Shown one piece after another: positions 12,632 through 48,532 of a stretch of DNA of 64,000 nt. The stretch is taken from positions 9,339-73,338 of the forward strand of contig JBBDIK010000013.1 of NCBI GenBank assembly GCA_040880465.1, read 5' to 3'. The notes under the pieces were generated by a model that had not been told where the DNA came from, searched no databases, and was given only the letters and a program-made list of their open reading frames with translations. The stretch's first letter is position 1; every line of letters starts with the position of its first letter. The position numbers and the translations under genes were made by a program. This stretch comes from Actinomycetota bacterium. GTDB lineage: Bacteria; Actinomycetota; UBA4738; JBBDHU01.

Positions 12632-12673
12632 GCCTGTATCCTGCCCCGCGGAACCCCTCGAGGAGGCCCCGAT

Positions 12674-28949: not shown

Positions 28950-30005
28950 ATGCCGGAGCGTGCCCCGGGCGCAGCTGCGCCCCGCCGCCGCAGAGCGGGA
29001 AAGATCATCGCGATCGTCGCGATCGCGTGCGTCCTCGTCCTGGCCGGTCTCGCCGTCGCGGGCTACTCCTACTTCCGTTGGTGTCAGGGCGCGTCGGGTC
29101 CCCGGGAAGGCGTTCCGTTCGAGATCCCCAAGGGCGTGTCCGGCGCCGAAGTCATCGCCTCGCTCAACGGCGAAGGCGTCCTTCGGTGCAACGCCGTGCC
29201 CCGTTACATCGCCCAAGCGCGCTCGATCGGATTCCAGGCGGGCGCCTACAAGCTCGAGACGAACATGACCGTGGACGAGGCGCTCGCCCGCCTGGATGAA
29301 GGTCCGATCGTGCGAACCGTGTCGATGACGATCCCTGAGGGGTGGCGCCTTACCCAGACGACGGCAGAGGCCGCGAAGCGGTTGCACCTGAACGAGGCGG
29401 AACTCACCCGGCTCGCGGAGAACGGGGGCTTCACCGTCCCGCCGTACCTGCCTGCGGGCAAAGCCACGACCGAAGGGTTCCTGTTCCCGAAGACCTACGA
29501 GTTCCCGCGAGACGGGCTCACGGAGGAAACCGTCATCGAACGCCTGCTCGATCAGTTCGACCAGGAGGCGGGGAAGCTCCCGTGGAAGAACGCGAAGCGG
29601 CTCGGTGTCACGGCGTACGAAGCCGTGATCGTCGCCTCGCTCGTCGAACGCGAAGCACAGGTGCCGTCGGAGCGCGCGCGGGTCGCGGCGGTCATCTACA
29701 ACCGCATCGCCCGGCACGAGATCCTCGGGATCGACGCGAGCAACCAGTACATCGACCCGAACCCCGATGACGGTCTGACGACCAGCGATCTGGCGATCGA
29801 CAGTCCATACAATCTGCGCCTGAAGGAGAACGCAGGCCGGCTGCCGCCCACCCCGATCGCGAGCCCCGGGCTCGCGTCGCTGCGCGCGGCGCTGCAGCCC
29901 GCCGATACGGACGAGTGGCTCTACGTGCTGTGCGGATCCGACGGGCATCACGAGTTCACGGCGAGCTACGCTGAGTTCCGTCGATTGAAGGAGCAGTGTC
30001 TCTGA
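28950..30005 (+). CDS. mltG: endolytic murein transglycosylase MltG (YceG-like)
   Basis: N-terminal TM helix, LysM-like region, ASLVEREA catalytic-region motif, and ...SPYNLR / ..GLPPTPIASPG. Confidence 0.85.
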   Translation: MPERAPGAAAPRRRRAGKIIAIVAIACVLVLAGLAVAGYSYFRWCQGASGPREGVPFEIPKGVSGAEVIASLNGEGVLRCNAVPRYIAQARSIGFQAGAYKLETNMTVDEALARLDEGPIVRTVSMTIPEGWRLTQTTAEAAKRLHLNEAELTRLAENGGFTVPPYLPAGKATTEGFLFPKTYEFPRDGLTEETVIERLLDQFDQEAGKLPWKNAKRLGVTAYEAVIVASLVEREAQVPSERARVAAVIYNRIARHEILGIDASNQYIDPNPDDGLTTSDLAIDSPYNLRLKENAGRLPPTPIASPGLASLRAALQPADTDEWLYVLCGSDGHHEFTASYAEFRRLKEQCL

Positions 30006-30880
30006 TGGGCGCCTCGGCGGCGGATACGCCGGCCCTGGATTGGCCGGAGCCGCAACCAGGGGTCCATCTCCTCGGGGTGATCGGCTGGCCGGTCCTGCAC
30101 AGCCTCTCCCCGGTGATCCAGTCCGCAGCGCTGGCCGCTCTCGGGCTCGGCGACGAGTGGCGATATGTACATCTCCCGGTTCCACCCGGTGCCATGCCAC
30201 AGGCGATGGCGAAGCTCCAGGACGACGGGTACCGCGGTGCCAACGTCACGATGCCCCACAAGGAATCGGCCGCGGAGCTGGCGACCGGATGCTCGTCCGA
30301 CGTCGAGCGGCTCCGGGCGGTCAACACGCTGAACCGTACCGATGGCGGTTTCGAAGGGCACAACACCGACGCTCCGGGGTTCGCGAACTTCCTCGCGGGC
30401 GATGTCGGGTTCGTGCCGGCTGGTGGCCCGACCCTCATCTTCGGGGCGGGCGGCGCGGCCAGGGCCTGCGCGCTGGCGCTCGTGCAGATGGGGGTGACCG
30501 AGATCATCGTCGCGGCTCGGGACGTGAACCGCGGGTGGGCGGCGATGGACGGACTCGTTCCCCAAGGGAACCTCGCGGTGATCGCGTTCGACGATGCGAG
30601 TCGCGTATCGCCGGCCCTGATCGTCAACGCGACCCCCGTGGGTTCGTCCGGCGAGGTCCTCCCGGCCCCGGCACTGTCACCCGAGATCGTGGTGGTGGAT
30701 CTCCTGTATCACCCGGCGGACACCCCGCTCTTGGCCGCCGCCCGGGGGGCCGGCGCACGCGCCGCCGGCGGCCTCGGCCTTCTCGTGCATCAGGGGGCCC
30801 TGTCGCTCGAGATCTGGACGGGGCGGATGCCGGACCTGGCGGTGATGAGGGCGGCAGGTGAGGCGGCCGGAGCTGTCTGA
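30005..30880 (+). CDS. aroE: shikimate dehydrogenase
   Basis: GVIGWPVLHSLSPVIQ..., GANVTMPHK, AVNTL, NTDAPGF, GAGGAARA. The ATG at 30005 overlaps the mltG stop. An in-frame GTG at 29996 is an alternative start. Confidence 0.85.
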   Translation: MGASAADTPALDWPEPQPGVHLLGVIGWPVLHSLSPVIQSAALAALGLGDEWRYVHLPVPPGAMPQAMAKLQDDGYRGANVTMPHKESAAELATGCSSDVERLRAVNTLNRTDGGFEGHNTDAPGFANFLAGDVGFVPAGGPTLIFGAGGAARACALALVQMGVTEIIVAARDVNRGWAAMDGLVPQGNLAVIAFDDASRVSPALIVNATPVGSSGEVLPAPALSPEIVVVDLLYHPADTPLLAAARGAGARAAGGLGLLVHQGALSLEIWTGRMPDLAVMRAAGEAAGAV

Positions 30881-30982
30881 GGGGGCGCCTGACGGAGCTG
30901 CCTGACTCGCCAGTCAGGGCCTTCTGCCTGAGGGGCCGTACGCTCGGGTAAAGGAACTCCTACAGACACCCGATTACGGGTA

Positions 30983-31705
30983 GTGGAAACGGAACCCATG
31001 GATATCGATTTCTCTTCTCTCGCGTCCCGCATCGCGGCGGACGTCGGGGGCTTGCGAGGGTGCATCATCGCCTCGCGTGATGGACTCGTACTCGGCGCGT
31101 ACCCCGCCGACGGCGAGGCCGTCCTGCGCCCGGCCTGGCTGCGCTTCGCCGCGCTGGGTGACGTCGAGAAGGGATTCATCGAATTCGGTGGGGAGACATG
31201 GGTCTACGTTCAGCGCGGACCCTACGCCGCCTTCGCGGTGAGTGAAGTCGCCGCTCGTCCAGGCTTGATCCTCGAGGAGATGGAGCAGATCCTCCGCTCG
31301 GCCGAGGAGGCGCGGAGTCGGCAGCCCAGCGTCCGGATGGAGGGCGGCGATGCAGCCCGGAGTAAGCCGCGCACCACGCTGCATCCGGAAGCGCGGCCGT
31401 CCGCTCCGGCTCCGGCCTCGGGCGTTCCAGCTCAGGCTGCATCCGCCAGCCCCGCCCAGGAGGCAGCAGCCCCCGCGCCGCCGCCTACGGATACCCCGCA
31501 GGTCATCTCGACCGACGAGCCACAACCGGCCTCGGAGGTGCCGGCTCCGTCGAGCGACGCCCCGACGCCGTCGCAGGAGGTTGCTCCGGCCGCCTCGCCG
31601 CCGGCCCCACAACCGCAGGAGGGCGATGTGGACCGGGTCTTGCTCGCTCAGGAGTTCGCACAGTTGCTGGAGGACAGCGGCTACGATGACGAGGAGGACG
31701 AGTGA
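30983..31705 (+). CDS. Roadblock/LC7-like domain protein with Pro/Ala/Ser/Gln-rich linker and acidic C-terminal helix; first gene of the pilus ATPase operon
   Basis: N-terminal ~105 aa: VGGLRGCIIASRDGLVLGAYP...GFIEFGGETWVYVQRGPYAAFAVSEVAARPGLILEEM fits the Roadblock/LC7 (MglB-like) alpha-beta-alpha pattern. About 110 aa of low complexity follow. The protein ends VDRVLLAQEFAQLLEDSGYDDEEDE. The start codon is uncertain (GTG 30983 or ATG 30998). Confidence 0.5.
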   Translation: METEPMDIDFSSLASRIAADVGGLRGCIIASRDGLVLGAYPADGEAVLRPAWLRFAALGDVEKGFIEFGGETWVYVQRGPYAAFAVSEVAARPGLILEEMEQILRSAEEARSRQPSVRMEGGDAARSKPRTTLHPEARPSAPAPASGVPAQAASASPAQEAAAPAPPPTDTPQVISTDEPQPASEVPAPSSDAPTPSQEVAPAASPPAPQPQEGDVDRVLLAQEFAQLLEDSGYDDEEDE

Positions 31706-31715
31706 TCGGACCTAG

Positions 31716-33410
31716 ATGGCGGAGGTAAAGAAGGCCAAACAGCTCGGCGAGATCCTCGTCGACGACGGCTTGGTCACCCAGGAGCAACTCGACCACGCGC
31801 TCGAGGAGCACCGCCGTGTCGGCAAGCTCCTCGGACGGGTGCTGATCGACCTCGGCTACATCAAGGAGACCGACCTCGTTCGGGCGCTCGCCCAGCAAGT
31901 CGGGTTCGAGTTCGTCGATCTCAGCGAGTACCAGATCGAGCCCTGGGCGCCGGTGTTGCTGCCCGAGCAGGTCGCCCGCCGTTATCGCGCTCTCCCGATC
32001 GGCGAGCGCGACGGCAAACTCCTCGTGGCGATGTCCGACCCGGCGAACGTCTACGCCCTCGACGACATCCGCATCATCACGGGCCGCGACGTCCAGCCGG
32101 TCGTCGCGACGGCCGCGGACATCGAGCAAGCGCTCCGCCGATACGCCGGGCTCGACGCTCAGGCTGAGGAGCTGGCCGAAGAGGTCGCGGAAGCCGCGGA
32201 CGAGGGCAAGAAGAAGGGGGACGGCGAGGAGGACGAGGAGGAGGACGACGAGGCTCCGATCGTCAAGCTCGTGAACGCGATCATGACGCAGGCCGTCGGC
32301 GACCGAGCCTCCGACATCCACATCGAACCGACCGAGAAGGACGTGCGGGTCCGCTTCCGCGTCGACGGTGTCCTCCACGAGGTGAGTCGCGCCCAGAAGC
32401 GGATCCAGAACGGGCTGACCAGCCGCTTGAAGGTGATGGCGGAGATGGACATCGCGGAGAAGCGGATCCCCCAAGACGGGCGGATCGCGATGCGCGTCGC
32501 GGGCAAGATGCTCGACCTGCGCGTGGTCACCCTGCCGACCGTCTACGGCGAGAAGGTCGTGATGCGTGTCCTGGACAAGAGTTCGGCGCTCCTTCACCTC
32601 GAGGACCTAGGGTTCCTGGAGCACTCGTACAAGCGGTACGAGGAGGCCTACAGCAAGCCGTACGGTGCCATCCTGGTGACGGGTCCGACCGGCGCCGGCA
32701 AGTCGACCACGCTGTACGCCACGCTGAACGTGTTGAACTCCCCGGAACGCAACATCATCACCGTGGAGGATCCGGTCGAATACCGGCTCAAGGGCATCAA
32801 CCAGTGCCAGGTCCACAACGCAGCGGGGCTCACGTTCGCCCGGGCGCTGCGAGCGATCCTGCGCAACTCGCCCGACATCATCCTCGTAGGAGAGATCCGC
32901 GACCGCGAGACGGCCACGATCGCGACCGAGTCGGCGCTGACCGGCCACCTCGTCCTGTCGACGCTGCACACCAACGATGCCCCTTCGGCGATCCCCCGGC
33001 TCATCGAGATGGGGATCGAGACGTTCATCGTGGCATCGTCCATCGACTGCGTCGTCGCGCAGCGGCTGGCGCGCAAGCTCTGTGAGAAGTGCAAGGAGCC
33101 CTACGCGCCGGAGGCGGCCGAGCTGGTCGCGATCGGGTACAACGAGCAGGAGATCGCCGACATCGAACAGCTCTACCGCCCGGTTGGGTGCCCCGCGTGC
33201 TCCAAGACCGGCTACCGGGGCAGGATCGGTCTCTACGAGGTCATGCTCGTCAACGACGATATCGAGCGGCTCACGATCGAGCGGGCACCGGCCGACGAGA
33301 TCCGCAAGGCCGCGATCGCCGAAGGCATGGCGACCCTGCGTGACGACGGCCTCCAGAAGGTCCGGCTCGGGATGACGTCGATCGCCGACGTCCTCCGGGT
33401 GGTTGCCTGA
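31716..33410 (+). CDS. pilB: type IV pilus extension ATPase PilB, copy 1 (GspE/T2SSE family with T2SSE_N/MshEN-like N-domain)
   Basis: 564 aa. Walker A GPTGAGKST, Walker B DIILVGEIRD, tetracysteine CEKC...CPAC. The N-terminal domain carries two 24-aa LGxxLVxxGLV-type repeats. Confidence 0.9.
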   Translation: MAEVKKAKQLGEILVDDGLVTQEQLDHALEEHRRVGKLLGRVLIDLGYIKETDLVRALAQQVGFEFVDLSEYQIEPWAPVLLPEQVARRYRALPIGERDGKLLVAMSDPANVYALDDIRIITGRDVQPVVATAADIEQALRRYAGLDAQAEELAEEVAEAADEGKKKGDGEEDEEEDDEAPIVKLVNAIMTQAVGDRASDIHIEPTEKDVRVRFRVDGVLHEVSRAQKRIQNGLTSRLKVMAEMDIAEKRIPQDGRIAMRVAGKMLDLRVVTLPTVYGEKVVMRVLDKSSALLHLEDLGFLEHSYKRYEEAYSKPYGAILVTGPTGAGKSTTLYATLNVLNSPERNIITVEDPVEYRLKGINQCQVHNAAGLTFARALRAILRNSPDIILVGEIRDRETATIATESALTGHLVLSTLHTNDAPSAIPRLIEMGIETFIVASSIDCVVAQRLARKLCEKCKEPYAPEAAELVAIGYNEQEIADIEQLYRPVGCPACSKTGYRGRIGLYEVMLVNDDIERLTIERAPADEIRKAAIAEGMATLRDDGLQKVRLGMTSIADVLRVVA

Positions 33411-35098
33411 TGGCCCAGGTGCAGAACCGGTCGCGGCAACTCGGCGAGATCCTCATGGAGCGCGGGCTCCTGTCGCCCGAGCAGCTCCAGGCGGCCCTCG
33501 AGGAGCACCAGAAGGCGGGCAAGCTCCTCGGGCGGGTCCTCATCGACAAGGGGTACGTCAGCGAGGCCGACCTCGTCCGAGCGTTGGCCGAGCAAGTTGG
33601 GCTCGAGTTCGTCGACCTGACCGAGTTCCCCGTCGACGCGTCGTGCACGGCCCTGCTTCCCGAATCCGTCGCTCGCCGCTACCGGGCGATTCCCATCGCC
33701 GAGCGCGACGGCAAACTCCTCGTGGCGATGTCCGACCCGGCGAACGTCTACGCCTTGGACGACATCCGCATCATCACCGACCGCGACGTGCAACCCGTCG
33801 TGGCGACGGCCAGCGATGTCGAGGGGGCGATCCGGAAGTTCGCGGGGCTCGACGCGGCGGTCGAGGAACTGGCCGAGGAGATCGCCGAAGCCAAGGACGA
33901 CGAAGACCTCATGGCGGCGGAGGGCATCGCGGTCGAGGAGGCTCCGATCGTCAAGTTGGTCACGGCGATCATCAAGCAGGCGGTGTCGGAACGCGCATCG
34001 GACATCCATATCGAACCCACGGAGCGCGACGTACGCGTGCGATTCCGCGTGGACGGCGTCCTGCACGACGCGATGAAGTCGCCGAAGAGCATCCAGACGG
34101 GGCTCATCTCACGGCTGAAGGTCATGGCGGACCTGAACATCGCCGAGAATCGGCTGCCACAGGACGGGCGGATCAGCGTCAAGGTGAGCGGCAGGCAGTT
34201 CGACCTGCGGCTCGCGACCCTGCCGACCGTCTACGGCGAACGCATGATGATCCGGGTGCTCGACAAGAGCTCGGCACTGATGGAGCTGTCGGACCTGGGC
34301 CTGCTGGAGGACCCCTTCAAGCAGTTCGAGGTGTCCTTCCGTAAGCCGTACGGGGCGGTCCTGGTCACCGGGCCGACGGGCTCGGGGAAGACGACGACGA
34401 TGTACGCCACCCTGTCCTTGATCAACTCGCCCGAGAAGAACGTCATCACGGTCGAGGATCCCGTCGAGTACAAGCTCAAGGGGGTCAATCAGATCCAGGT
34501 GATGCCGAAGCAGGGGCTGACGTTCGCCGGGTCCCTGCGCGCCATCCTGCGTGCCGACCCGGACATCGTGCTGATCGGGGAGATCCGCGACCGCGAGACC
34601 GCCATCATCGGTATCGAGGCCGCACTCACCGGCCACCTCGTGCTGTCGTCCCTGCACACGAACGATGCCGCCTCCGCCGTCACCCGTCTGACCGAGATGG
34701 AGGTCGAAACGTTCCTGGTGGCTTCCGCGATCGAGTGCGTGGTGGCCCAGCGCCTCGCGCGCATCCTGTGCGATAAGTGCAAGGAGGCTTACCAGCCCGA
34801 TACCCCCGAATTGGCGGCTGCAGGCTATCCTGAGAGTGCGTGGTCCGAGATCGGGCAGCTCTTCCGCCCAACCGGCTGCAAGGCGTGTTCAAATACCGGG
34901 TACCGCGGACGGATCGGCCTCTACGAGGTCCTGACCGTCACGGAGGAGATCGAGCATCTGACGGTGGAACGGGTGCCGTCCGCGAGGATCGCCGACGTGG
35001 CGATCGAGCAAGGGATGATGACGTTGCGTGAGGACGGACTGGAGAAGGCTCGGCGGGGGATCACCTCCGTCCAGGAAGTGCTGAGGGTGGTGGTGTAG
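33410..35098 (+). CDS. pilB: type IV pilus extension ATPase PilB, copy 2 (tandem paralog)
   Basis: 562 aa, collinear with copy 1. Walker A GPTGSGKTT, DIVLIGEIRD, CDKC...CKAC. Its start ATG overlaps the copy 1 stop (TGATG). Confidence 0.9.
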   Translation: MAQVQNRSRQLGEILMERGLLSPEQLQAALEEHQKAGKLLGRVLIDKGYVSEADLVRALAEQVGLEFVDLTEFPVDASCTALLPESVARRYRAIPIAERDGKLLVAMSDPANVYALDDIRIITDRDVQPVVATASDVEGAIRKFAGLDAAVEELAEEIAEAKDDEDLMAAEGIAVEEAPIVKLVTAIIKQAVSERASDIHIEPTERDVRVRFRVDGVLHDAMKSPKSIQTGLISRLKVMADLNIAENRLPQDGRISVKVSGRQFDLRLATLPTVYGERMMIRVLDKSSALMELSDLGLLEDPFKQFEVSFRKPYGAVLVTGPTGSGKTTTMYATLSLINSPEKNVITVEDPVEYKLKGVNQIQVMPKQGLTFAGSLRAILRADPDIVLIGEIRDRETAIIGIEAALTGHLVLSSLHTNDAASAVTRLTEMEVETFLVASAIECVVAQRLARILCDKCKEAYQPDTPELAAAGYPESAWSEIGQLFRPTGCKACSNTGYRGRIGLYEVLTVTEEIEHLTVERVPSARIADVAIEQGMMTLREDGLEKARRGITSVQEVLRVVV

Positions 35099-36301
35099 GT
35101 GGCGACGACCGCTGCTGCGGACGAAGACGTACAGATCCCGATCCCCGAACTGCTCGAGGTGATGCTCTCGCGCGGAGCCTCGGATCTGCATATCACGGCC
35201 GGTGCGCCACCGACGATCCGGATGCACGGTGAGCTGGTCCGCCTGGAGGAATACCCGCTGCTCACCCCGCGGGGGTTGCAGGGCATGATCTACGCGATCC
35301 TGCCGCAACGGCACCGCGAACACCTCGAGCAGGACCTCGAGTTGGACATGTCCTACGCGCTGCCCGGGAAGGCCCGGTTCAGGGTCAACGTGTACTGGCA
35401 GCGTGACTCGCTCGGGTCGGCGTTCCGCCTCATCCCCTACGAGATCAAGTCGACGGACGAGTTGCGGCTCCCCGAGGTCGTCAAGGAGCTGGCCCGGTAC
35501 CCGCGTGGGTTCATCGTCGTGACGGGCCCGACAGGCTCAGGCAAGTCCACGTCCCTGGCGGCGATGATCGACCAGATCAACAACGAACTGCCCGTCCACA
35601 TCATGACCGTCGAGGATCCCATCGAGTTCCTGCACAAGCACAAGACCGCGATGATCAATCAGCGCGAGGTGGGGGCGGACACCCACGGGTTCGGTCCCGC
35701 CCTCAAGCACGTGCTCCGTCAGGACCCCGACGTCATCCTGGTCGGGGAGATGCGAGACCTCGAGACCGTCCAGACGGCGATCACCGCCGCCGAGACCGGT
35801 CACCTCGTCTTCGCCACCCTGCACACCCAGGACGCGCCGCAGACCATCGACCGGATCATCGACGTTTTCCCATCGCACTCGCAGCAGCAGATCCGGGTGC
35901 AGCTCTCGACCACCCTGCAGGGCGTCATGACCCAGCAGCTCCTTCAGACGCCGGACGGGCAAGGCCGGGTCGTCGCCTGTGAGGTCTTGATCGCGACGTC
36001 GGCGGTGCGCAACCTGATCCGGGAGGGGAAGGTGCACCAGATCTACTCGGTGATGCAGTCGGGTGGTCGGTTCGGGATGCAGACGATGGACCAGGCGTTG
36101 GCGGACCTGGTCAAGACGGGACAGATCACGCAACAGCTTGCCCTGGAACGCTGTCACGACCCCGAGGAGTTGACCCGCCTGATGAGCGGCGGTGTCTCTG
36201 CCGGGGCGGCGACCGGATTCGCACCGGGCGGGGAGTACGCGCAACAGGGTGCTCCCCAGCAGGCATACCCGCCCATGGGCGGCGGGATACCGCAGGGCTG
36301 A
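35099..36301 (+). CDS. pilT: twitching-motility retraction ATPase PilT (with Gly/Gln/Pro-rich C-terminal tail)
   Basis: ASDLHITAGAPPTIRMHG, GPTGSGKSTS, ILVGEMRDLETV, AETGHLVFATLHT (PilT AIRNLIRE-like SAVRNLIREGK). 400 aa, about 35 aa longer than usual at the C-terminus. Confidence 0.9.
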   Translation: MATTAAADEDVQIPIPELLEVMLSRGASDLHITAGAPPTIRMHGELVRLEEYPLLTPRGLQGMIYAILPQRHREHLEQDLELDMSYALPGKARFRVNVYWQRDSLGSAFRLIPYEIKSTDELRLPEVVKELARYPRGFIVVTGPTGSGKSTSLAAMIDQINNELPVHIMTVEDPIEFLHKHKTAMINQREVGADTHGFGPALKHVLRQDPDVILVGEMRDLETVQTAITAAETGHLVFATLHTQDAPQTIDRIIDVFPSHSQQQIRVQLSTTLQGVMTQQLLQTPDGQGRVVACEVLIATSAVRNLIREGKVHQIYSVMQSGGRFGMQTMDQALADLVKTGQITQQLALERCHDPEELTRLMSGGVSAGAATGFAPGGEYAQQGAPQQAYPPMGGGIPQG

Positions 36302-36316: not shown

Positions 36317-37531
36317 GTGGCTGAGACATTCTTGTACAAGGCACGGGACCGCACGGGCAAGGTCGTCAGCGGCGAACTGATCGGCGACAGCGAGCAGCTC
36401 GTCATCGCCAAGCTGCGCGAACAGGCCCTCGTCCCCATCGAGGTATCGAAGAAGTCCGCCGGCATGAAGCGCGAACTCACGTTCCGGCCGGGGCGGGTCA
36501 AGCTCAAGCTGATGTCGGTGTTCTCGCGTCAGTTCGCCACCATGGTGAACTCCGGTCTCCCCATCCTGCGTGCGCTGGCGATCCTGGCGGAGCAGACCGA
36601 ATCGCAGGAACTCGCCAAGATCCTCACCCGCGTCCGGATGGACGTCGAGCAGGGAGCATCCCTGTCCGGCGCCATGGCCAAGCATCCCAAGGTCTTCGAC
36701 GACCTCTACGTGTCGATGGTCAAGGCCGGTGAGACCGGCGGTGTGCTCGACTCGGTCCTGCTGCGACTCGCCGACCAGATCGAGAAGGAGGTCTCGCTCC
36801 GGAACCGTATCAAGTCGGCGATGACCTACCCGGTCGTGGTGCTGCTGATGGTGCTGTTCATCCTTGCGGCGATGCTCCTCTTCATCGTCCCGCAGTTCGA
36901 GAAGATCTACGCGGACCTGGGCAGCCAGCTCCCGCTTCCGACGCGCGTCCTCCTGGGCGCTTCGAAGGCGCTCCGGGACTACTGGTACCTGTTCATCGGT
37001 GGATCGATCGGCGGCTGGTTCGCGCTCAAGCAGTGGAAGAAGACGGACTCCGGGCGCGAAGCGGTCGACCGATTCAAGCTTCGCGTGCCGGTCTTCGGCC
37101 CACTCTTCCGCAAGACGGCCCTGTCGCGGTTCTCCAGCACGCTGGGCGTGCTCCTGCGGTCCGGCGTACCGATCCTGCAGGCCCTGGATATCGTCGCCGA
37201 CACGGTCGGGAACCGGGTCGTGAGCAAGGCCGTTTCGGACGTACAGGTCAGTGTGCGCGAGGGCGAGAGCATCGCCAAACCGTTGTCCCAGCACGCGGTG
37301 TTCCCACCGATGGTCGTGCAGATGCTCGCGGTGGGCGAGGAGACGGGTGCGGTCGATACCATGCTCGAGAAGGTTGCGCAGTTCTACGATGAGGAGGTCA
37401 CCGCCGCGGTCGACTCCCTCACATCCCTGATCGAGCCGCTGATGATCGCCGTGATCGGCGGGGCCGTCGGCATGTCCGTCATCGCCCTCTACTTGCCGAT
37501 GTTCAACATCATCAACCTGATCAACGAGTAG
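36317..37531 (+). CDS. pilC: type IV pilus platform protein PilC (GspF family)
   Basis: 404 aa. Two T2SSF repeats and three TM segments. GGAGGAG SD upstream of the GTG at 36317. Confidence 0.9.
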   Translation: MAETFLYKARDRTGKVVSGELIGDSEQLVIAKLREQALVPIEVSKKSAGMKRELTFRPGRVKLKLMSVFSRQFATMVNSGLPILRALAILAEQTESQELAKILTRVRMDVEQGASLSGAMAKHPKVFDDLYVSMVKAGETGGVLDSVLLRLADQIEKEVSLRNRIKSAMTYPVVVLLMVLFILAAMLLFIVPQFEKIYADLGSQLPLPTRVLLGASKALRDYWYLFIGGSIGGWFALKQWKKTDSGREAVDRFKLRVPVFGPLFRKTALSRFSSTLGVLLRSGVPILQALDIVADTVGNRVVSKAVSDVQVSVREGESIAKPLSQHAVFPPMVVQMLAVGEETGAVDTMLEKVAQFYDEEVTAAVDSLTSLIEPLMIAVIGGAVGMSVIALYLPMFNIINLINE

Positions 37532-37668: not shown

Positions 37669-37751
37669 CAGCTATCGATCCGAGCGGCCGATGAAAGAAA
37701 CATGGGTTGGCTCCAGCGGGGAGCCGACATTGCAGCGAAAGGAGGCTCCTC

Positions 37752-38237
37752 ATGCTGGAGCGCCTTAAGGGGCGGCGCGCTGAGGAAGAGGGGTTCACCC
37801 TCATCGAGTTGATGGTGGTCGTTCTGATCATCGGTATCTTGATCGCCATCGCTCTCCCGACCTTCCTCGGTGCCCGCGAGCGGGCCAACGACAAGGCCGC
37901 GCAGTCCTCGGTCCGGAACGCCTTGGTAGCAGCCAAGACGATCTTCACCGACACCGACGACTACTCGCTGGTCACGGTGGCGACTTTGGATGCTACTGAG
38001 CCATCGTTGGACTATCTGGCGGTGTCGACCGACGACACGGAGATCAGTTTCGACGTTCGTGACACGGCGAGCCTGATCCCGGACGGCGCGATCGCGTTGG
38101 TCGCGTACTCGGCGTCAGGCCGCTGCTTCGGTCTGCTCAACGAGAGTGATACCGGTGACGTGTTCTCCAATGACCCGGCGGCTGCGGACTGCGATGCAGC
38201 GGACGTGAGCTACGGCGACTTGGACTGGATCGTCTAG
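37752..38237 (+). CDS. pilA: major type IV pilin (prepilin) PilA
   Basis: AAAGGAGG SD precedes the ATG at 37752. MLERLKGRRAEEEG|FTLIELMVVVLIIGILIAIALPTF has class III signal features: G-1, F+1, E+5. A C-terminal Cys pair (C..21 aa..C) gives a D-region-like loop. Confidence 0.85.
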   Translation: MLERLKGRRAEEEGFTLIELMVVVLIIGILIAIALPTFLGARERANDKAAQSSVRNALVAAKTIFTDTDDYSLVTVATLDATEPSLDYLAVSTDDTEISFDVRDTASLIPDGAIALVAYSASGRCFGLLNESDTGDVFSNDPAAADCDAADVSYGDLDWIV

Positions 38238-38272
38238 AGCACGACGCGAACGACGGTTCATTCGAACCCCAC

Positions 38273-38300
38273 AGAAGGGCGGCCTTCGGGCCGCCCTTCT
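38273..38300 (+). terminator. intrinsic-terminator-like hairpin after pilA
   Basis: AGAAGGGCGGCC-TTCG-GGCCGCCCTTCT, a perfect 12-bp stem with a TTCG tetraloop, 36 nt after the pilA stop. No U-tract follows, which is common in high-GC actinobacteria. Confidence 0.7.
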
Positions 38301-38395
38301 GCGTGACTATCGGTGGGCTGTCGGTCAGATATCCGACAGGCGCACGGCTCAAGCGAATCAGAGCCTCGGCCGATACCTAGAGATAACGGGGTGCT

Positions 38396-40360
38396 GTGCG
38401 TAGAATGGGGTTCGAGATGGATCGCGATCTGAACGTGCTCGTGCGTGTCGTCCGTCGCCTCCGCAGCGAGGACGACGGGTTCACGATCGTGGAGGTCATG
38501 GTGGCGTCCCTCATCCTGCTGATCGCCATCCTGTCGACCGCCTACACGGCGACCATCGGGTTCACGTACTCGGCCCGCGCGCGACAGAAGCAAGACGCGA
38601 CCGGCGTCGCCAACTCCGTGTTCGAGGATGTCCAAGGCTTCTCCGAAACCATCCTGATGGAGGGCCTCGATTCTGCCGACCTGGACGCCAACAACGCCGG
38701 GCTCGTGCCCTGCGCGGGTGATTCCACGACCTGGTGCCTGGGGACGTCGAGCGGCGAGCAGGTGCTCGAGTCGACGGCCACCGAAGCTTCCGTCCTGAAT
38801 CCGCATGAGAGCACCGTCGAAGTGGGTCCGACAACGTTCTACCGGACGGTCTTCATCACGAAGGTGGATGGTGGAACGGATCAGCTTCGGGTTACGATCG
38901 AGATCACTTGGGGCACTCTCGATCCGGACACCGGTGAGTGGGAGAACACCCTCGTCTTGGACAAGGTCCTCGAGACCACGACGAGCTGTCCGATCGAGAC
39001 GTTGCATCCGTTCGGGGGTCCGTGCGGAACCGTCGTCACGGGCGAGGCCAACATATCGGACGGGTCGATCACGGTCTCGCCGTACGGGTCGACGCTTACT
39101 CCACCTTCTACGGCGACTGCGGATATCGCGCCGTTCACGAACGTTGCCAATCTGCTGGTCGTCACCCCGCCGTCCGTGGGAATGGACCTGGCCGCCGAGC
39201 AGGCGGGATCGGTGAGTGGAAGCGTCGTCACGTCCGGGGGCTACAGGAGCTTGACGACGGTCTCAGGGCAGACGACGACGGTGACGGAGGACGTGTGCGG
39301 GACGATCAGCGCGGCCTCCGCCGCGAACGACACCGAGCAGGGAAGCGACCCCTTCTCGCAGGTGTCGCCGACCGACCAGACGGGGTGCATCGCTCCCGGC
39401 TACCTGACCACCTTCCTGACGTCACCGCCCTCAACGACCGTGTCGAGGCTGGTGCTGGAGAAGCGGACGGCGGACGCATCGGCGACGACCGTGAGTTCGG
39501 TCACGGCCGCCGGGTCGGAGCAGTGCCCCAGCGGTAGCAACTCGAGTGCGGCATGCGGGTACGGGACCGTCCGGCAGGCCGGTACCACATGGATCAACTC
39601 CCTGGCCTACGCCGGGTCTCTGTCTGCGGGCAACTGCGGCCTGGTCCAATCCGATGCACGGACCTCCGCGAGTTCGGTCCAGAGCCAGAAGGTCGGCGGC
39701 AAGGTGGTCACGACCATCACGCGCAATCTGCCGAACGTCACGATCGGGTGCCTTCCCCCGAACCTCACGTCGTTGGCAAACGGAACCGCCACGGTGCCGC
39801 CCGCCTGGAACGCCCCGAGCCCCGCCTTCACCTCAACGACCGGGCGCACGGTCCCCGGGGCGACCGCCGGGACGTACCAGGGCTACATGCTGCGGATGTA
39901 CGGCATGACCGAGACGACCATCATCGAAGCTGGTACGGGCGCGGCGAATCCCGTCTACTCCCGGTCCGGGTCCATCCGGCACTGGAACGGATCCGGCTAC
40001 ACGACGACGACGATCACCAACAACACGTGCAGCCCCTCGTGCACGATCAGCCCGGCGACGCTGACCCTGGGCTTCACCGGCTCGGCGGCTCAATCGAAAG
40101 CCACCATCACGGGCGGTACGGGATACCTGTGCGCGCGACTGACCCCGACGTCGTTCACGGTTCCGTCCCTGTCGACCTCGGCAAGCACCACGTCGTTCCC
40201 GGACCCGCTCACGGGCTTCAGCCTGACGGAGCGCATCTTGACCCGGACGAGCACCCAGACCTGTGACTCGAACGCTGGGGGGGGCTTTACGACCGCGCTG
40301 AACGTGACGGTGAGTCCGAGCCTCGGGACGGCGACGGCATCCGTGACCGCTGATGGATGA
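38396..40360 (+). CDS. very large minor pilin (PilV-like prepilin N-terminus plus a Ser/Thr/Cys-rich domain of about 600 aa)
   Basis: ...RRLRSEDDG|FTIVEVMVASLILLIAIL prepilin signal (G-1, F+1, E+5). 654 aa. The remainder is Thr/Ser-rich with many Cys. Exact start is uncertain (38396 or 38405). Confidence 0.7.
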   Translation: MRRMGFEMDRDLNVLVRVVRRLRSEDDGFTIVEVMVASLILLIAILSTAYTATIGFTYSARARQKQDATGVANSVFEDVQGFSETILMEGLDSADLDANNAGLVPCAGDSTTWCLGTSSGEQVLESTATEASVLNPHESTVEVGPTTFYRTVFITKVDGGTDQLRVTIEITWGTLDPDTGEWENTLVLDKVLETTTSCPIETLHPFGGPCGTVVTGEANISDGSITVSPYGSTLTPPSTATADIAPFTNVANLLVVTPPSVGMDLAAEQAGSVSGSVVTSGGYRSLTTVSGQTTTVTEDVCGTISAASAANDTEQGSDPFSQVSPTDQTGCIAPGYLTTFLTSPPSTTVSRLVLEKRTADASATTVSSVTAAGSEQCPSGSNSSAACGYGTVRQAGTTWINSLAYAGSLSAGNCGLVQSDARTSASSVQSQKVGGKVVTTITRNLPNVTIGCLPPNLTSLANGTATVPPAWNAPSPAFTSTTGRTVPGATAGTYQGYMLRMYGMTETTIIEAGTGAANPVYSRSGSIRHWNGSGYTTTTITNNTCSPSCTISPATLTLGFTGSAAQSKATITGGTGYLCARLTPTSFTVPSLSTSASTTSFPDPLTGFSLTERILTRTSTQTCDSNAGGGFTTALNVTVSPSLGTATASVTADG

Positions 40361-40973
40361 GCCGGCAGCCGTGAGGACCTCTTCCGCTCCGAACGGGAGA
40401 ACGGCCGAGGATGGTTTCACGCTGGTTGAGGTGATGGTCGCGTCGGCGGTCATGATGGTCGTGATCGGAATGGCCGTCACGCTGCTGTTCAGCATCCAGC
40501 GAGGGGTTGAGCGGCAGGTGGACCGGCAGCAATCCGTGGATCAGGCCCGCCTCGCCGTGGAGCAGATCGACCGTGAGTTGCGCTCGGCGTCATCGATGAG
40601 CGAACTGAACGGCGGCGAAGGCCTGGTCGCCTTCACACTGAGCAACCAGGACACCCGGGAGGTCTCGACGGGAACCTGCGTCGAGTGGCGGGTCAGCGGA
40701 GGTAACCTCGAGACCAGGATCTGGCCGTCCGACTTCGCGGTGGGGAGTTCGTATCCATGGAGGATCGTGGCGACGGACATCGTCAATCCGGCCGGTGACC
40801 CGATCTTCGACGTCGATACAGGAGCGCTCTACGAGGGCCGTCTCGTGCACGTGCATGTATTGGTCAACGCGAACAACGCCTCGGGAAGAGATGTGGAGCT
40901 GAACACCGATCTCGCGGGGCGCAATATCGTGGTCGGCGAGGTGGATCCATGTGCGGCCTCACAGCCGGCGTAG
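40353..40973 (+). CDS. minor pilin (PilW-like prepilin)
   Basis: ...GRTAEDG|FTLVEVMVASAVMMVVIGMAV prepilin signal. 206 aa. Overlaps the upstream gene by 8 nt. Confidence 0.75.
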   Translation: MDEPAAVRTSSAPNGRTAEDGFTLVEVMVASAVMMVVIGMAVTLLFSIQRGVERQVDRQQSVDQARLAVEQIDRELRSASSMSELNGGEGLVAFTLSNQDTREVSTGTCVEWRVSGGNLETRIWPSDFAVGSSYPWRIVATDIVNPAGDPIFDVDTGALYEGRLVHVHVLVNANNASGRDVELNTDLAGRNIVVGEVDPCAASQPA

Positions 40974-40993
40974 GGAGCCGAAGGAGTAGAGGG

Positions 40994-42727
40994 ATGATGA
41001 TGCGAGTGCGGCGCGATGAATCCGGCCTGGCGATGGTCGTGGTCCTGCTGGTGACGCTCGTGCTGGTTTCGCTCTCGCTGGTCGTCGTTCAACTCGCTTC
41101 GCATAGCACGACGTCGAGCAGTTACGACCAGCGTCGTCTCCAGGCCGTTCACGCGGCAGAGACCGGCATCAACGAATATCTGACGGTCCTGCCGACCACG
41201 TACGGTCCCGGGCTCTGCGCTGACGGCCTCTTGGATCCAGGACCCATCTCCACGTCGCCTCTCCTCGAATACACGTTGGACGTCGAGTTGCGCGACGGCG
41301 GCACGACCGTGGGTTGCGCCGGCTACGACGGCAGGACCGTCGACACGGCGATCATCACCTCCACGGCAACGGCCGGGACCGCGACGGCGAACTCGACCGC
41401 GGTCACCCGGGTGCTGCGGGAAGAGGTTACGCTCACGCCCATCGACGGCGACGAAATGAACCAGGTCATCTACGCGACTAACAGCGTCGACATCAGCGGC
41501 AACGTGGACATCAACGGGTCTGCGACGGAGAACGATGCGGATATCTACGTCGCCGGCGACTTCGCCGTCAACAACTACGCGAATGTCGAAGGGTCCGTGT
41601 ACGCGAAGGGAAACGTCTCGCTCGGCCCGGCGTGTTACGCCGGGAGCATCTACGCGGACGGCAACGTAGAGAGCAACGGTGGCTCCTACGTCAACTACAT
41701 CTGCAACGGGAATACGCAGAAGCCGGGCGCCGTGGTGTGGGATAACGGCTACACGTATACGGTGCCCGCCGACGAGGGTGGGATCTGGGCCCGGGGGAAC
41801 ATCACGCTGGGCAACAACGCGTACTCCTACGGGTGGTGCACGAGTCCAGGGGCGATCAGCGTCAACCACTGCTCGGGGTTCAACCCGACCAACACGAACG
41901 GGTTCCCCGCGAACTGCCCCAACCACCTGGCGCCCGGGCCGAACCAGGATCTCAACGCCTGCGGGATCAACCGGACGCCGCCACTGGTGGAGACGCTCCC
42001 CTTCCCGTCGCTTACGTACTCGGCCGCCGACTGGACGGCCGATGGCTACGCGGTCCACAACTACACCACCTGTGCTGCGGGGCAGTCGGCCCTCGTGGCC
42101 TACCTTACCGGCGTCAACCCCGTGCCCGCGTACGGCGGTACGCCTGCATGGACCGCCGCGGAGATGACCGGCAAGAACGTCCTCAGGATCACGAGTACGC
42201 CGACGACCCCGGTCTGTGCGGTGACATTGAGCGGCATCTCCGGCACACTGCCGAACGATCTCGCCGTGATCGTCGACGGGTCCTTCGAGACGGGGGACAG
42301 CGGGGGCGGCGTGCAGATCACCAACTCGGGGGCCGAGACGCACACGTTCTACGTGATCCGGCCGCCGAACGGAACGCCTGCGATAAACCCGACCCCTGGG
42401 TGGAACCCGCGCACGGGTGATGCCTCCACGGCGAACTGCGATGTGACGGCTTCGAGTGCCACGCAGAACGGATCCCTGGCTAAGAAGGACCAGAAATATA
42501 CGAGCAAGACCGACATGTCGACGATCAACTTCTTCTCGTACACCCCGTGCGCCATCTACGCGTTCAACCAGAACAAGTCCGGGAGCGGCCAGTACATCGC
42601 GGGCGACACGGTCTTCATCAAGAACTCGTTCACCCTCAACTTCAACAAGAGCGACGTGCCGGGGGTCGTGCCCATCGGCTACGAGGCCGCGCCCGTGTAC
42701 GTCCAGGAACTGCGGGCAACGCCTTAG
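40994..42727 (+). CDS. large PilX-like minor pilin / putative tip protein
   Basis: AAGGAG lies 7 nt before the ATG at 40994. MMMRVRRDESG|LAMVVVLLVTLVLVSLSL is PilX_N-like (no E+5). 577 aa, with a repeat-containing Asn/Gly/Tyr-rich domain. Confidence 0.6.
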   Translation: MMMRVRRDESGLAMVVVLLVTLVLVSLSLVVVQLASHSTTSSSYDQRRLQAVHAAETGINEYLTVLPTTYGPGLCADGLLDPGPISTSPLLEYTLDVELRDGGTTVGCAGYDGRTVDTAIITSTATAGTATANSTAVTRVLREEVTLTPIDGDEMNQVIYATNSVDISGNVDINGSATENDADIYVAGDFAVNNYANVEGSVYAKGNVSLGPACYAGSIYADGNVESNGGSYVNYICNGNTQKPGAVVWDNGYTYTVPADEGGIWARGNITLGNNAYSYGWCTSPGAISVNHCSGFNPTNTNGFPANCPNHLAPGPNQDLNACGINRTPPLVETLPFPSLTYSAADWTADGYAVHNYTTCAAGQSALVAYLTGVNPVPAYGGTPAWTAAEMTGKNVLRITSTPTTPVCAVTLSGISGTLPNDLAVIVDGSFETGDSGGGVQITNSGAETHTFYVIRPPNGTPAINPTPGWNPRTGDASTANCDVTASSATQNGSLAKKDQKYTSKTDMSTINFFSYTPCAIYAFNQNKSGSGQYIAGDTVFIKNSFTLNFNKSDVPGVVPIGYEAAPVYVQELRATP

Positions 42728-42769
42728 GGGACCTCGCGGCTCGCTTGCATATCGCGGTAGGGTTCGCGA

Positions 42770-43549
42770 GTGCCCCTTGCCGTCGCGGTGGTGATCTGGT
42801 TCCTCTTCGGGCTCGTGTTCGGCTCCTTCGTCACGGTGCTCGTCTACCGGGTGCCACGGCACGAGTCCATCGCCAAGCCGGGTTCGCGGTGCCCAAGGTG
42901 TGGAACGCCGCTTCGGGTTATCGATAACGTCCCGGTCGTCTCGTACCTGATCCGCCGCGGCAGGTGCCATGCCTGTGGCGAGCGCATCTCCGCCCGGTAC
43001 CCCCTCACCGAGCTGGCAACCTCCGCCCTGTTCGTCCTGGCTGCCCTCGCGTTCCCCGAGGAGCCGTTCGTGGCCGGGGTCATCGCGATCTTCTTCGGCG
43101 TACTCCTGGCCCTGTCGCTGATCGACTTCGAACACCGGATCCTTCCGAACGCGATCACCTACCCGTCCCTGGTCATCTTCGCCATCGCCGTCGTCGCGGG
43201 GCAGCTCCTCGGGACGGGGATGTCCATCCTGGGGGCCGGCCTCGGCCTCCTTGGATACGCGGGGGCGCTGTTCCTCATCGCGTTCCTGTACCCCAAGGGG
43301 ATGGGGATGGGCGACGTGAAGCTCGTTGCCCTGATCGGGCTGGTTGCCGGGTCCCTGGGGGCCGCCGAGGTGGTCGTGGCCGCGGCAGCGGGCTTCTTCA
43401 GCGGGGGCATCGTGGGGCTTGGCGTGCTCCTGGTGCGGCGCCGGCGAGGCCAGACGATGCCGTTCGGGCCCTTCCTGGCCTTCGGGGCGGTCGTAGGGAT
43501 CCTCGTGGGGCCTCAGATCGCCTCCTGGTACCTGGGTCTGCTCGGGTAG
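42770..43549 (+). CDS. pilD: prepilin peptidase / N-methyltransferase PilD (A24 family)
   Basis: CPRCGTPL...RGRCHACGERI (DiS-P-DiS domain). Catalytic Asp contexts are LIDFEHRILPN and GMGDVKL. Eight predicted TM helices. Confidence 0.9.
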   Translation: MPLAVAVVIWFLFGLVFGSFVTVLVYRVPRHESIAKPGSRCPRCGTPLRVIDNVPVVSYLIRRGRCHACGERISARYPLTELATSALFVLAALAFPEEPFVAGVIAIFFGVLLALSLIDFEHRILPNAITYPSLVIFAIAVVAGQLLGTGMSILGAGLGLLGYAGALFLIAFLYPKGMGMGDVKLVALIGLVAGSLGAAEVVVAAAAGFFSGGIVGLGVLLVRRRRGQTMPFGPFLAFGAVVGILVGPQIASWYLGLLG

Positions 43550-43601
43550 CCCCTCAGCCGGACCTTGCAGCCCACATCCGCAGAAAGTCCTCAGGCACGC
43601 C

Positions 43602-43628
43602 GAAAACCCCTCCTGAGCGGGGGTTTTG
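43602..43628 (+). terminator. intrinsic terminator after pilD
   Basis: GAAAACCCC-tcctgagc-GGGGGTTTTGG. The stem is followed by, and partly includes, a T-run. Confidence 0.6.
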
Positions 43629-43656
43629 GCGCTCCCGGGTTTTGTAGCGGATGTGT

Positions 43657-43685
43657 TTGAAAACTCTTGTTGCTACTGTTACTTT
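43657..43685 (+). promoter_or_regulatory. candidate sigma-70-type promoter for the HTH-pilMNO operon
   Basis: TTGAAA, a 17-nt spacer, then TACTTT. It lies in the most AT-rich stretch of the window, about 100 nt upstream of the HTH gene. Confidence 0.35.
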
Positions 43686-43739
43686 CCGTGGCGCCTGACC
43701 TTCCTGATGCGGGATGAGGTTTTTGGTGTGAACAGTTGT

Positions 43740-43784
43740 CTCAGGTGCCACATGTTACGTGTAGACGCACGTATGGCACCTGAG
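43740..43784 (+). promoter_or_regulatory. 45-nt extended inverted repeat / hairpin abutting the SD of the HTH gene
   Basis: CTCAGGTGCCA-catgt-TACGTG-tagacg-CACGTA-TGGCACCTGAG. The outer arm is 11 bp and the inner arm 6 bp. The 3' arm runs into the GAGGAGG SD (43782-43788). Confidence 0.6.
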
Positions 43785-43789
43785 GAGGT

Positions 43790-44005
43790 GTGCGGCCCTT
43801 GAGCAAGAAGCGTGGTTTTTCGAGTGACCGGCTGCTGACGGTCGGGGAGGTCGCGAACGCGATGCGGGTCTCCAACATGACCGTGTACCGCCTGATCAAG
43901 GCGGGGCAGCTGGCCGCCATCCGGGTCGGCAAGAACTATCGGATCCGGGAGTCGGATGTGGACCGGTACCTATCGTCCCGGTCGGTCAAGGTGGAGGGGA
44001 CCTGA
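43790..44005 (+). CDS. excisionase-family (MerR-like, HTH_17-type) small DNA-binding protein, first gene of the pilMNO operon
   Basis: LLTVGEVANAMRVSNMTVYRLIKAGQLAAIRVGKNYRIRESDVDRYL is the canonical Xis-type wing-helix pattern. Its stop overlaps the pilM ATG (TGATG). The start may be GTG 43790 or TTG 43799. Confidence 0.75.
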   Translation: MRPLSKKRGFSSDRLLTVGEVANAMRVSNMTVYRLIKAGQLAAIRVGKNYRIRESDVDRYLSSRSVKVEGT

Positions 44006-45060
44006 TGGCGGGACCGCGGATCGGTCTGGACGTCGGCTCCACCGCCGTGCGCGCTGCCGAGCTGCGCTTCGGCGGCGATGTGCCGACGCTGGTGCGCGCG
44101 GCGCAGGTTCCGTTGCCGGCCGGTGCCGTCGAGGGCGGCGAGATCCGTGACTCCAACGTGGTGGGGGAGGCGCTCCGCGAACTTTGGGGCCGCGGCGGGT
44201 TCCGGTCCAAGCAGGTCATCATGGGCGTCGGCAACCAGCGCGTCGTCGTCCGCGAGGTCGCTCTGCCGTTCCTCCCGGAGAAGGAACTCCGGCAGTCGCT
44301 CGCCTACCAGGTGCAGGAGTTCATCCCGATCTCGGTGGAAGAAGCCGTCCTGGACTACGACACGCTCGGCGAGTTCGAGCACGAAGGACGCAAGATGCTC
44401 CGGCTGCTGCTCGTTGCGGCGCACCGACAGATGGTGAACATGGTCGTCGACGCGACCGAGCACGCGAAGCTGCAGCTCATCGGTCTGGATCTGAACCCCT
44501 TCGCCTTGGTGCGCGCGGTCGGCGCGATCGATGCCTCGCTGGACGAGGAGAGCGAGGGGGAAGAAGCCCTCGTGGACATCGGCGCCCACGTCACCAACAT
44601 CTGTGCGCACGACCGCGGCGTGACGCGGTTCGTCCGTATCCTGCCCTCCGGGGGACGCGACATCACGGTCGCGATCGCTCGTTCGCTCGGGATCAGCGAG
44701 GAGGACGCGGAGCGGCTCAAGCGCGGCGAGCCCGTCGAAGGTGGCCCGAGCGTGGAGGAGGCGCGCGCACTGGCGATGACGCGCGCATCCGGGTTCGTCG
44801 ACGAGATCCGGAGCTCGCTGCAGTTCTACACGGCGCAGTCGCCGGGGACCCGGATCGGACGCATCCTGCTGAGTGGCGGGGGGTCCAAGCTCGACGGACT
44901 GCTGGAGCTGTTCCAGGAACGGCTGCCGGCGCCCGTCGACCGGGGCCACGCCCTGCAGCGCGTCAAGTCCGAGTTGACCCTGACCGAAGAGGCGCTGGCG
45001 GAGGCTGAGCCGGTGCTGACCGTGGCGATCGGGCTGGGGATCCAGGGGAGGCGTGCGTGA
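44005..45060 (+). CDS. pilM: type IV pilus assembly protein PilM (actin-like ATPase fold)
   Basis: IGLDVGSTAVRAAEL..., GVGNQRVVVREVALP, LIGLDLNPFALVRAV, LLSGGGSKLDGL. Confidence 0.9.
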   Translation: MAGPRIGLDVGSTAVRAAELRFGGDVPTLVRAAQVPLPAGAVEGGEIRDSNVVGEALRELWGRGGFRSKQVIMGVGNQRVVVREVALPFLPEKELRQSLAYQVQEFIPISVEEAVLDYDTLGEFEHEGRKMLRLLLVAAHRQMVNMVVDATEHAKLQLIGLDLNPFALVRAVGAIDASLDEESEGEEALVDIGAHVTNICAHDRGVTRFVRILPSGGRDITVAIARSLGISEEDAERLKRGEPVEGGPSVEEARALAMTRASGFVDEIRSSLQFYTAQSPGTRIGRILLSGGGSKLDGLLELFQERLPAPVDRGHALQRVKSELTLTEEALAEAEPVLTVAIGLGIQGRRA

Positions 45061-48032: not shown

Positions 48033-48532
48033 GGGGGAACGTGTACCTGATCGGCATGCCGGGGTCGGGGAAGTCGGAGGTCGGCCGGATCGTCGCGGAC
48101 GCGTTGCAGATGCCGTTCGCCGACCTGGACGAGGAGATCGAGCGCGAGGCAGGCATGTCGATCGCGGAGATCTTCGCCGCGGAAGGGGAGTCGGGGTTCC
48201 GCCGGCGTGAGACCTCGGTGCTCTCGCGCGTATCTTCCCGCAACCGGATGGTGGTCGCGTGCGGAGGCGGGACGGTGCTGGACCCGGACAACCGGACGCT
48301 GCTGCGCGCCGGTGGGACCGTCGTCTGGCTGAACGTGCCGGCAGAGGTGATCGTCGAGCGGCTGGACTTCGACGGTGGTCGGCCGCTGCTGCGCGCGCCG
48401 GAGGACGTCGACGCGCTGTTGAAGGAGCGAGAGCCGTTGTACCGGGAGTCGGCGAACGTCGTGGTCGACGCGGACGGCGAGCTCGAGGCGGTCGCGGCCG
48501 AAGTCCTCCGCCGTCTGGAGGCGCGGGGATGA
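48029..48532 (+). CDS. aroK: shikimate kinase
   Basis: [32 protein letters not shown] overlap with aroC. Confidence 0.9.

Follow-up and report, generated by a model that had tools for sequence, protein, structure and literature searches.

What does a protein of the Roadblock/LC7 fold do at the head of a type IV pilus operon that has no small-GTPase gene nearby? The question is raised by a gene in the 64-kb stretch of actinobacterial DNA analysed in this work (hereafter "the window"). Most MglBs are coupled to a GTPase gene, and the characterised prokaryotic Roadblock proteins are described as acting within a small-GTPase module (PMC4316618). In the literature we found no description of the family delineated below, nor of a Roadblock gene heading a bacterial pil operon.

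Gene, family and predicted fold

The open reading frame occupies positions 30983-31705 of the forward strand, encodes 240 aa when read from GTG 30983, and ends with a TGA stop codon at 31703-31705. The NCBI product MEX0992067.1, annotated as "hypothetical protein WD004_07330" of an Actinomycetota MAG, comprises 235 aa and starts at ATG 30998. Translation almost certainly begins at ATG 30998, 15 nt downstream of the GTG: NCBI places the start there, and relatives without the upstream GTG keep the opening codons ATGGATATCGAT. The frame and the stop codon given in an earlier note on this DNA are thus real, while its GTG start has to be replaced. The gene, an orphan Roadblock-fold gene of 235 codons at 30998-31705 (+ strand), is defined by the NCBI start, the conserved opening codons and the homologues; residue numbers in this work follow the 240-aa version.

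This is a genuine gene and not a chance ORF, since it has 82 homologues in protein clusters at 90% identity (word-indexed search) and matches 332 clusters at 50% identity. The latter were obtained in an exhaustive HMMER profile search of 1.84 billion representatives, with E-value ≤1e-3 for all 332 clusters and below 1e-10 for 304 of them. Relatives were present in 113 species when GTDB species genomes were scanned. The labelled family members all originate from MAGs of uncultured Actinomycetota/Actinomycetes, apart from one record labelled only "bacterium". Nearly all of the proteins are annotated as "hypothetical protein"; a single one was assigned by JGI to the COG2018/MglB family.

The Pfam Robl_LC7 HMM (PF03259) matched the protein only below threshold (12.9 bits vs. 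a cut-off of 23, E-value 0.093, residues 19-39 only). Robl_LC7 was nonetheless the sole recurrent Pfam match within the family, reported for 30 of 41 members at E-value ≤1, in all cases sub-threshold and with a best E-value of 3.9e-4. The NCBIfam search with the Roadblock-fold protein returned low-complexity noise only, and sequence searches of the PDB, carried out with the single protein and with the 41-sequence family profile, retrieved no Roadblock protein.

AlphaFold2, with a 41-sequence alignment as input, modeled residues 11-110 with pLDDT 90-96, and a domain-only model reached a mean pLDDT of 88.7 and a pTM of 0.82. The topology of the models, alpha-beta-beta-alpha-beta-beta-beta-alpha, corresponds to the order expected for Roadblock/LC7 (DSSP: H10-20, E24-31, E36-40, H44-56, E63-68, E71-78, E81-88, H93-113). 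In the Foldseek search against the PDB all 50 of the 50 matches listed were Roadblock proteins (best E-value 3.4e-7, probability 1.00), with TM-scores normalised by query length of 0.55-0.68 among the matches listed, above the 0.5 criterion. They include the Streptomyces avermitilis Roadblock/LC7 proteins 3kye (the best structural match) and 3leq, as well as MP1/p14, LAMTOR, MglB from M. xanthus and T. thermophilus, MglC, and Asgard Roadblock proteins. On the basis of the models and the fold search we place the predicted Roadblock/LC7 domain at residues 9-113 (31007-31321, + strand). Within it, the family alignments reveal near-invariant stretches SRDGLxLG (β2) and AWLRF (α2), F65 and F68 (β3), and further W73, G79 and YAAFA (β4-β5).

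Despite the weak HMM match we accept the fold, as structure prediction and fold search are decisive here; the assignment is sound, and the family lies outside the current Pfam model. The earlier note took the first ~105 aa for a Roadblock/LC7-like domain and named HMM comparison and structure prediction as ways of checking this: the predicted structure bears the assignment out, and the Pfam HMM alone does not. The sub-threshold Robl_LC7 scores, together with the confinement of the profile search to 332 clusters, argue that the family is narrow, sharply bounded and well separated from both MglB and CvnB, as far as sequence comparison can tell.

A tethered C-terminal helix

The region that follows the domain contains two conserved linear motifs, with a disordered stretch of variable length between them. 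The first motif, SKPRTTLHP (residues 127-135; 31361-31387, + strand), was found in the family alignment just past the domain. Its family consensus is P-S-G-K-P-R-T-S-L-H-P, and of the 288 family sequences that reach 140 aa, 167 match the strict pattern, P, R and H being nearly invariant in these. It is followed by a Pro/Ala/Ser/Glu-rich tether (31388-31621, + strand) predicted to be disordered (pLDDT 52-63). The 98 residues from 116 to 213, all in the same pLDDT range, include 23 P, 22 A, 12 S, 7 E and 7 Q. Across the family the tether ranges from 28 to 323 aa (median 90), is composed of P (20%), A (19%) and E (12%) to a large part, and carries a net negative charge. Domain fusions were ruled out as the cause of the length of the largest members (up to 480 aa), which simply possess longer low-complexity linkers.

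The second motif, DVDRVLLAQEFAQLLE (31625-31672, + strand), was identified from the helix in the AlphaFold2 model and from the family pattern E-[VI]-D-R-[VF]-x-L-A-[QRK]-E-F-[SAG]-x-L-L-Q. In the single-chain model the helix itself covers residues 218-230, at a pLDDT of 86. Among the 268 family sequences of 170 aa or longer, 213 carry the motif, and the sequences that lack it are mostly fragments or come from frameshifted long-read assemblies. The search pattern fixes the D and E residues but permitted substitutes at the three Leu positions, which are nonetheless occupied by Leu in 202/202, 202/202 and 200/202 sequences; Ala is found in 195/202. On a helical wheel the conserved residues D217, R218, L221, A222, E224, F225, L228 and L229 fall in one half and the variable residues opposite. 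Conservation on one side only would be expected if the helix docks on a partner. A mean-field DCA of helix versus domain had an effective depth of only 109 sequences; its highest-ranking pairs were artefacts of gaps, and helix-domain pairs came no higher than rank 150.

The protein ends with an acidic tail, DSGYDDEEDE (31673-31702, + strand), recognised by its composition. In the family the tails are 1-21 aa long (median 9) and rich in D (23%), E (20%) and G (14%). The final 27 residues have a net charge of -10; the hydrophobic moment is 0.15. Both of the features that had been read from the sequence, a disordered linker of ~110 aa and an acidic C-terminal helix, are thus recovered in the model, and the helix is strongly conserved. 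The layout resembles that of FtsZ, whose folded domain is joined through a disordered linker, likewise variable in length, to a short conserved peptide at the terminus that binds partner proteins; this is an architectural analogy only, the fold and the process being unrelated.

A terminal helix on a long flexible tether is also the layout of amphipathic membrane anchors such as those of FtsA or MinD, and the helix could in principle hold the protein at the membrane close to the base of the pilus. The membrane-targeting helices known are, however, cationic, while this helix and its tail are strongly acidic (-10) and the hydrophobic moment is low. We therefore rejected the idea on the grounds of charge and consider it highly improbable.

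The helix might instead fold back on its own Roadblock dimer, in cis or in trans, to give an auto-inhibited or self-associating regulator, perhaps switched via the KPRTSLHP motif. Roadblock dimers commonly bind amphipathic helices, as does LC7 the dynein intermediate chain and Ragulator LAMTOR1, and the fairly confident prediction of the helix in the single-chain model would agree with docking within the protein, as would a second conserved motif with Thr and Ser beside the domain. The switch by Ser/Thr phosphorylation of this motif is, however, pure conjecture, and we regard self-docking as unlikely, though with a better chance than the membrane anchor.

The pilus operon and the missing GTPase

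The gene ends 10 nt before the ATG (31716) of the first pilB copy (31716-33410, + strand), a T2SSE ATPase with an MshEN N-terminal domain that is annotated by NCBI as "type IV-A pilus assembly ATPase PilB". Domain searches identified a second pilB copy, 67% identical to the first (33410-35098), pilT (35099-36301, also annotated by NCBI) and pilC (36317-37531). These genes, all on the + strand, are followed on the same strand by a major pilin, three minor/PilX-like pilins, pilD, a small HTH gene, pilM, a pilN-like gene and pilO (37707-46258). The pilus cluster is inserted between aroE and aroC, the order in the window being EF-G paralogue, pdxS, ruvB, secDF, relA, alaS, ruvX, mltG, aroE, pilus cluster, aroC, aroK. 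These surroundings are a typical actinobacterial housekeeping stretch.

Nearly all of the species loci, about 80 in number, preserve the order aroE - Roadblock gene - pilB - pilT - pilC, followed by pilins, and the stop-to-start gap between the Roadblock gene and pilB is mostly 6-60 nt in the loci recovered. Two pilB genes were found only in the window and in L002/L003, L007 and L008, the other relatives having one; since the Roadblock gene occurs with either number, it is not tied to the duplication. Even the divergent members P0214 and P0197 are located directly 5' of a gene for PilB with an MshEN domain, and in locus L088 the two genes abut. In L029 and L055 the Roadblock gene is separated from pilB by a gene for a PilT paralogue and/or one for an AAA_16-TPR STAND protein; a GTPase as the inserted gene was ruled out in both. 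The position at the head of a pilB-pilB-pilT-pilC operon, the 10-nt spacing and the conservation of the gene beside pilB in related genomes, all of which the earlier note had claimed or made a point to be checked, agree with these data. By its co-localisation the gene counts as a type IVa pilus accessory component, and its short gaps to pilB together with a conserved promoter-like motif upstream make co-transcription with the core pil genes likely. Adjacency of this kind shows functional coupling to the pilus and is not proof of direct binding to PilB.

The upstream motif emerged from k-mer enrichment in the 130 nt preceding the gene (CTCAAG and CCGATA/CGATGC). The pattern T[CAT]AAG-N13-18-CGA[TC][AGT] is present within these 130 nt in 79 of 81 non-redundant loci, against a background of 0.011 per 130 nt, and 75 of those loci have the canonical spacing, that of T(A/C)AA-N16-xxCGA. 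Between the end of the motif and the start codon lie 9-23 nt, except in one locus (82 nt). In the window, the motif scan located the site TAAA-N16-CCCGATTA at 30949-30976 (+ strand), ending 21 nt 5' of the ATG. It fits the WhiG/FliA consensus as published, T(A/C)AA-N16-GCCGATAA; in Rubrobacter and Actinoplanes this consensus has been tied to clusters for type IV pili (PMC12871210). A scan with the sigma-70 consensus found no promoter near the Roadblock gene, and an Rfam search of the whole 64-kb window found no riboswitch or leader RNA. The conserved site suggests sigma-28/WhiG-type control and would support the Roadblock gene as the leader of the operon; by extension, the entire operon may belong to a WhiG-type regulon, which is controlled by c-di-GMP in some Actinomycetota.

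We searched for the G1, G3 and G4 motifs of small GTPases in all ORFs of at least 100 aa, covering the 64 kb of this genome and 10 kb on either side of the gene in relatives. No small-GTPase signature was detected in the window or within 10 kb in any of 86 loci (~80 species), the sole G1-G3-G4 match being the 692-aa EF-G paralogue (727-2805, - strand). That no GTPase gene is visible nearby, as observed previously for this stretch, therefore extends to about 80 related genomes, and the absence of a linked small GTPase is a property of the whole family.

An unlinked GTPase has to be considered in this context. The protein could be a classical MglB-type regulator, i.e. a GAP, whose helix might give GEF-like assistance; its target would be an MglA- or CvnD-like GTPase encoded elsewhere that controls the localisation or activity of the pilus, as in Myxococcus. 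Of 749 MglB homologues 328 are orphans, which makes unlinked partners plausible; none of the orphans had been characterised as of 2014 (PMC4316618). MglB and MglC are among the Roadblock-fold Foldseek matches, and the COG2018/MglB label given by JGI to one homologue points in the same direction. The strongest parallel is the C-terminus: in M. xanthus MglB a disordered segment (residues 131-146) precedes a D/E-rich helix (147-157) that binds a basic allosteric pocket of MglA, formed at α5 (PMC6785124). On the other hand, a GTPase signature was found in 0 of 86 loci, although most MglBs are GTPase-coupled; the family is sub-threshold for Robl_LC7 and confined to 332 clusters; and the linkage is always to pilB. 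We consider such a regulator possible, but on the whole somewhat doubtful. Because the D/E-rich helix of MglB binds MglA, the tail of the present protein would fit an unlinked GTPase and a motor equally well as the partner.

Candidate partners and relation to known Roadblock proteins

Our tentative preference, for a proposal that we hold to be nearly evenly balanced, is that the protein is a pilus-dedicated Roadblock adaptor or regulator that contacts the cytoplasmic motor directly. We base this on the unvarying position of the gene beside pilB and on the lack of any linked GTPase; judged from gene order, PilB would be the most likely partner. What we infer for this protein, namely dimerisation, docking of the helix, the identity of the partner and independence of a GTPase, can be put as follows. 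The Roadblock domain would dimerise, as Roadblock domains generally do, with the conserved α2 (AWLRF) and β3 serving as the dimer interface or as a binding platform. The flexible, acidic, Pro/Ala-rich tether of variable length would present the 16-residue helix and the acidic tail, which together could serve as a short linear element for docking into a basic pocket of the partner. Such a two-part contact might recruit, position or gate the cytoplasmic pilus motor. Roadblock adaptors that do not themselves touch a GTPase are known, namely MglC, LAMTOR subunits and dynein LC7. The more specific proposal, that the direct target of a Roadblock platform is a hexameric ATPase of the PilB/PilT type, or else the PilM/PilC base, no small GTPase being involved, is less probable than the general one, and we put it forward as a possible mechanism.

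PilM had also been suggested as the target of the acidic tail. The PilN-like protein encoded in the cluster starts with VSQVNLLPPEV, which we take to be the INLLP-type peptide that fills the PilM groove; the groove is thus probably not free, and docking of the tail in it is unlikely. PilM may still be the target of the tail.

Roadblock proteins form dimeric platforms and MglB binds MglA via its α2 helices; D/E-rich C-terminal helices are found across the MglB groups, and the C-terminus is extended in some of the orphan MglBs (PMC6785124). The present family has the same fold as MglB (TM-score normalised by query length 0.56-0.68), a disordered extension that ends in a D/E-rich helix, and a tie to type IV pilus motility. 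It differs from MglB in the lack of an adjacent mglA in all of about 80 genomes, in the low identity in the Foldseek alignments (10-19%) with Pfam scores below threshold, in a linker up to 20 times longer (28-323 aa vs. about 16 in MglB), in the extra KPRTSLHP motif, and in the location of the gene inside the pilB-pilT-pilC operon of monoderm Actinomycetota. By this comparison the protein may be described as a stretched MglB-like design with a platform, a long tether and an acidic docking helix.

MglC, the M. xanthus Roadblock paralogue without GAP activity, shares the fold (7ct3 is fifth among the Foldseek matches of the domain model) and acts, as proposed for the present protein, as an adaptor rather than an enzyme partner; it is also orphan-like. 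It works, however, inside the MglA/MglB/RomR module, has no tether-plus-helix arrangement and is not encoded in a pil operon. The CvnB-type conservon proteins are Roadblock proteins of the same phylum with the same fold (3kye), but the genes of the present family have no cvnA, cvnC or cvnD neighbours and their products form a separate sequence cluster.

Already known are the fold, the acidic helix at the C-terminus and, in general terms, the connection of Roadblock proteins with pilus motility. What is new is the family-wide embedding in the pilB-pilT-pilC operon of monoderm Actinomycetota, and further the long variable tether, the two conserved linear motifs and the consistent absence of a linked GTPase. 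The family is an uncharacterised variant of MglB-type regulators and not a new kind of system. It ties an orphan Roadblock/MglB protein to one constant functional setting, the motor operon of the type IVa pilus, and its 16-residue conserved helix, proposed to dock and carried on a disordered tether, provides an experimental handle. Should PilB or PilT prove to be the partner, Roadblock biology would reach beyond small GTPases, and the family would represent a new class of pilus motor regulators in monoderm Actinomycetota, where pilus regulation is barely studied. If the protein indeed acts on a PilB/PilT-type ATPase without a GTPase, this would be, as far as we know, the first pairing of a Roadblock protein with a non-GTPase motor NTPase.

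Roadblock genes are also frequent in archaeal type IV pilus loci (arCOG02603), and there, as in the family described here, a Roadblock gene repeatedly accompanies type IV pilus genes (PMC4858521). The archaeal proteins belong to another domain of life and a tether-plus-helix arrangement has not been reported for them. A GTPase-free mode of action, if true, might go back to an ancient coupling of Roadblock proteins with type IV filaments, of which the archaeal pilus loci would be another trace.

Genomic position and gene order of the pilus cluster

The entire 16-kb pilus cluster splits a shikimate gene group, with aroE on one side and aroC-aroK on the other (29996-30880 and 46884-48532, respectively), and this location is kept in about 80 related species. 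Downstream of the Roadblock gene lie two tandem pilB paralogues (31716-35098, plus strand) with 67% mutual identity, a duplication found only in the window and its closest relatives. The N-terminus of each paralogue contains two MshEN-like 24-residue motifs (e.g. QLGEILVDDGLVTQEQLDHALEEH, LLGRVLIDLGYIKETDLVRALAQQ), which resemble the c-di-GMP-binding motif of MshE/PilB. In one sub-lineage the Roadblock gene is separated from pilB by an inserted gene for a PilT paralogue, one for a large STAND/MalT-like protein of AAA_16-TPR architecture, or both (positions 11399-15849 of locus L055 and 11275-13788 of locus L029, each from a related genome). The only GTPase-signature gene within the window encodes a 692-aa EF-G paralogue (727-2805, minus strand).

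Putative promoters and an intergenic inverted repeat

At least two promoters of the WhiG/sigma-28 type may be present in the pilus cluster, as judged from the sequence, because a second motif of this type, the near-perfect match TCAA-N16-GCCGATA (38349-38375, plus strand), directly precedes a 654-aa minor-pilin ORF (38396-40360). The aroE-Roadblock intergenic region also contains a perfect 7-bp inverted repeat, CCTGACT-N4-AGTCAGG (30901-30918, plus strand), located upstream of the promoter-like motif of the Roadblock gene and kept in part in the related locus L007. This repeat could be what is left of a terminator, or it could act as an operator.

Small ORFs and a motif following the Roadblock domain

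A small plus-strand ORF between pilD and pilM (about 43810-44000; sequence including LTVGEVANAMRVSNMTVYRLIKAGQLAAIRVGKNYRIRESDVDRYL) encodes an excisionase/MerR-like helix-turn-helix protein, and relatives (loci L004-L006) carry an HTH_17 gene in the same slot; the protein could be a cluster-specific regulator. On the 3' side of pilO, a 187-aa ORF (46271-46834, plus strand) has a membrane helix at its N-terminus as well as a region rich in Pro, Ser and Thr; no Pfam match was found for it, and it may be an additional pilus component. Directly C-terminal to the Roadblock domain, the conserved motif P-S-G-K-P-R-T-S-L-H-P (31361-31387, plus strand) could serve as a second docking site or as a modification site.
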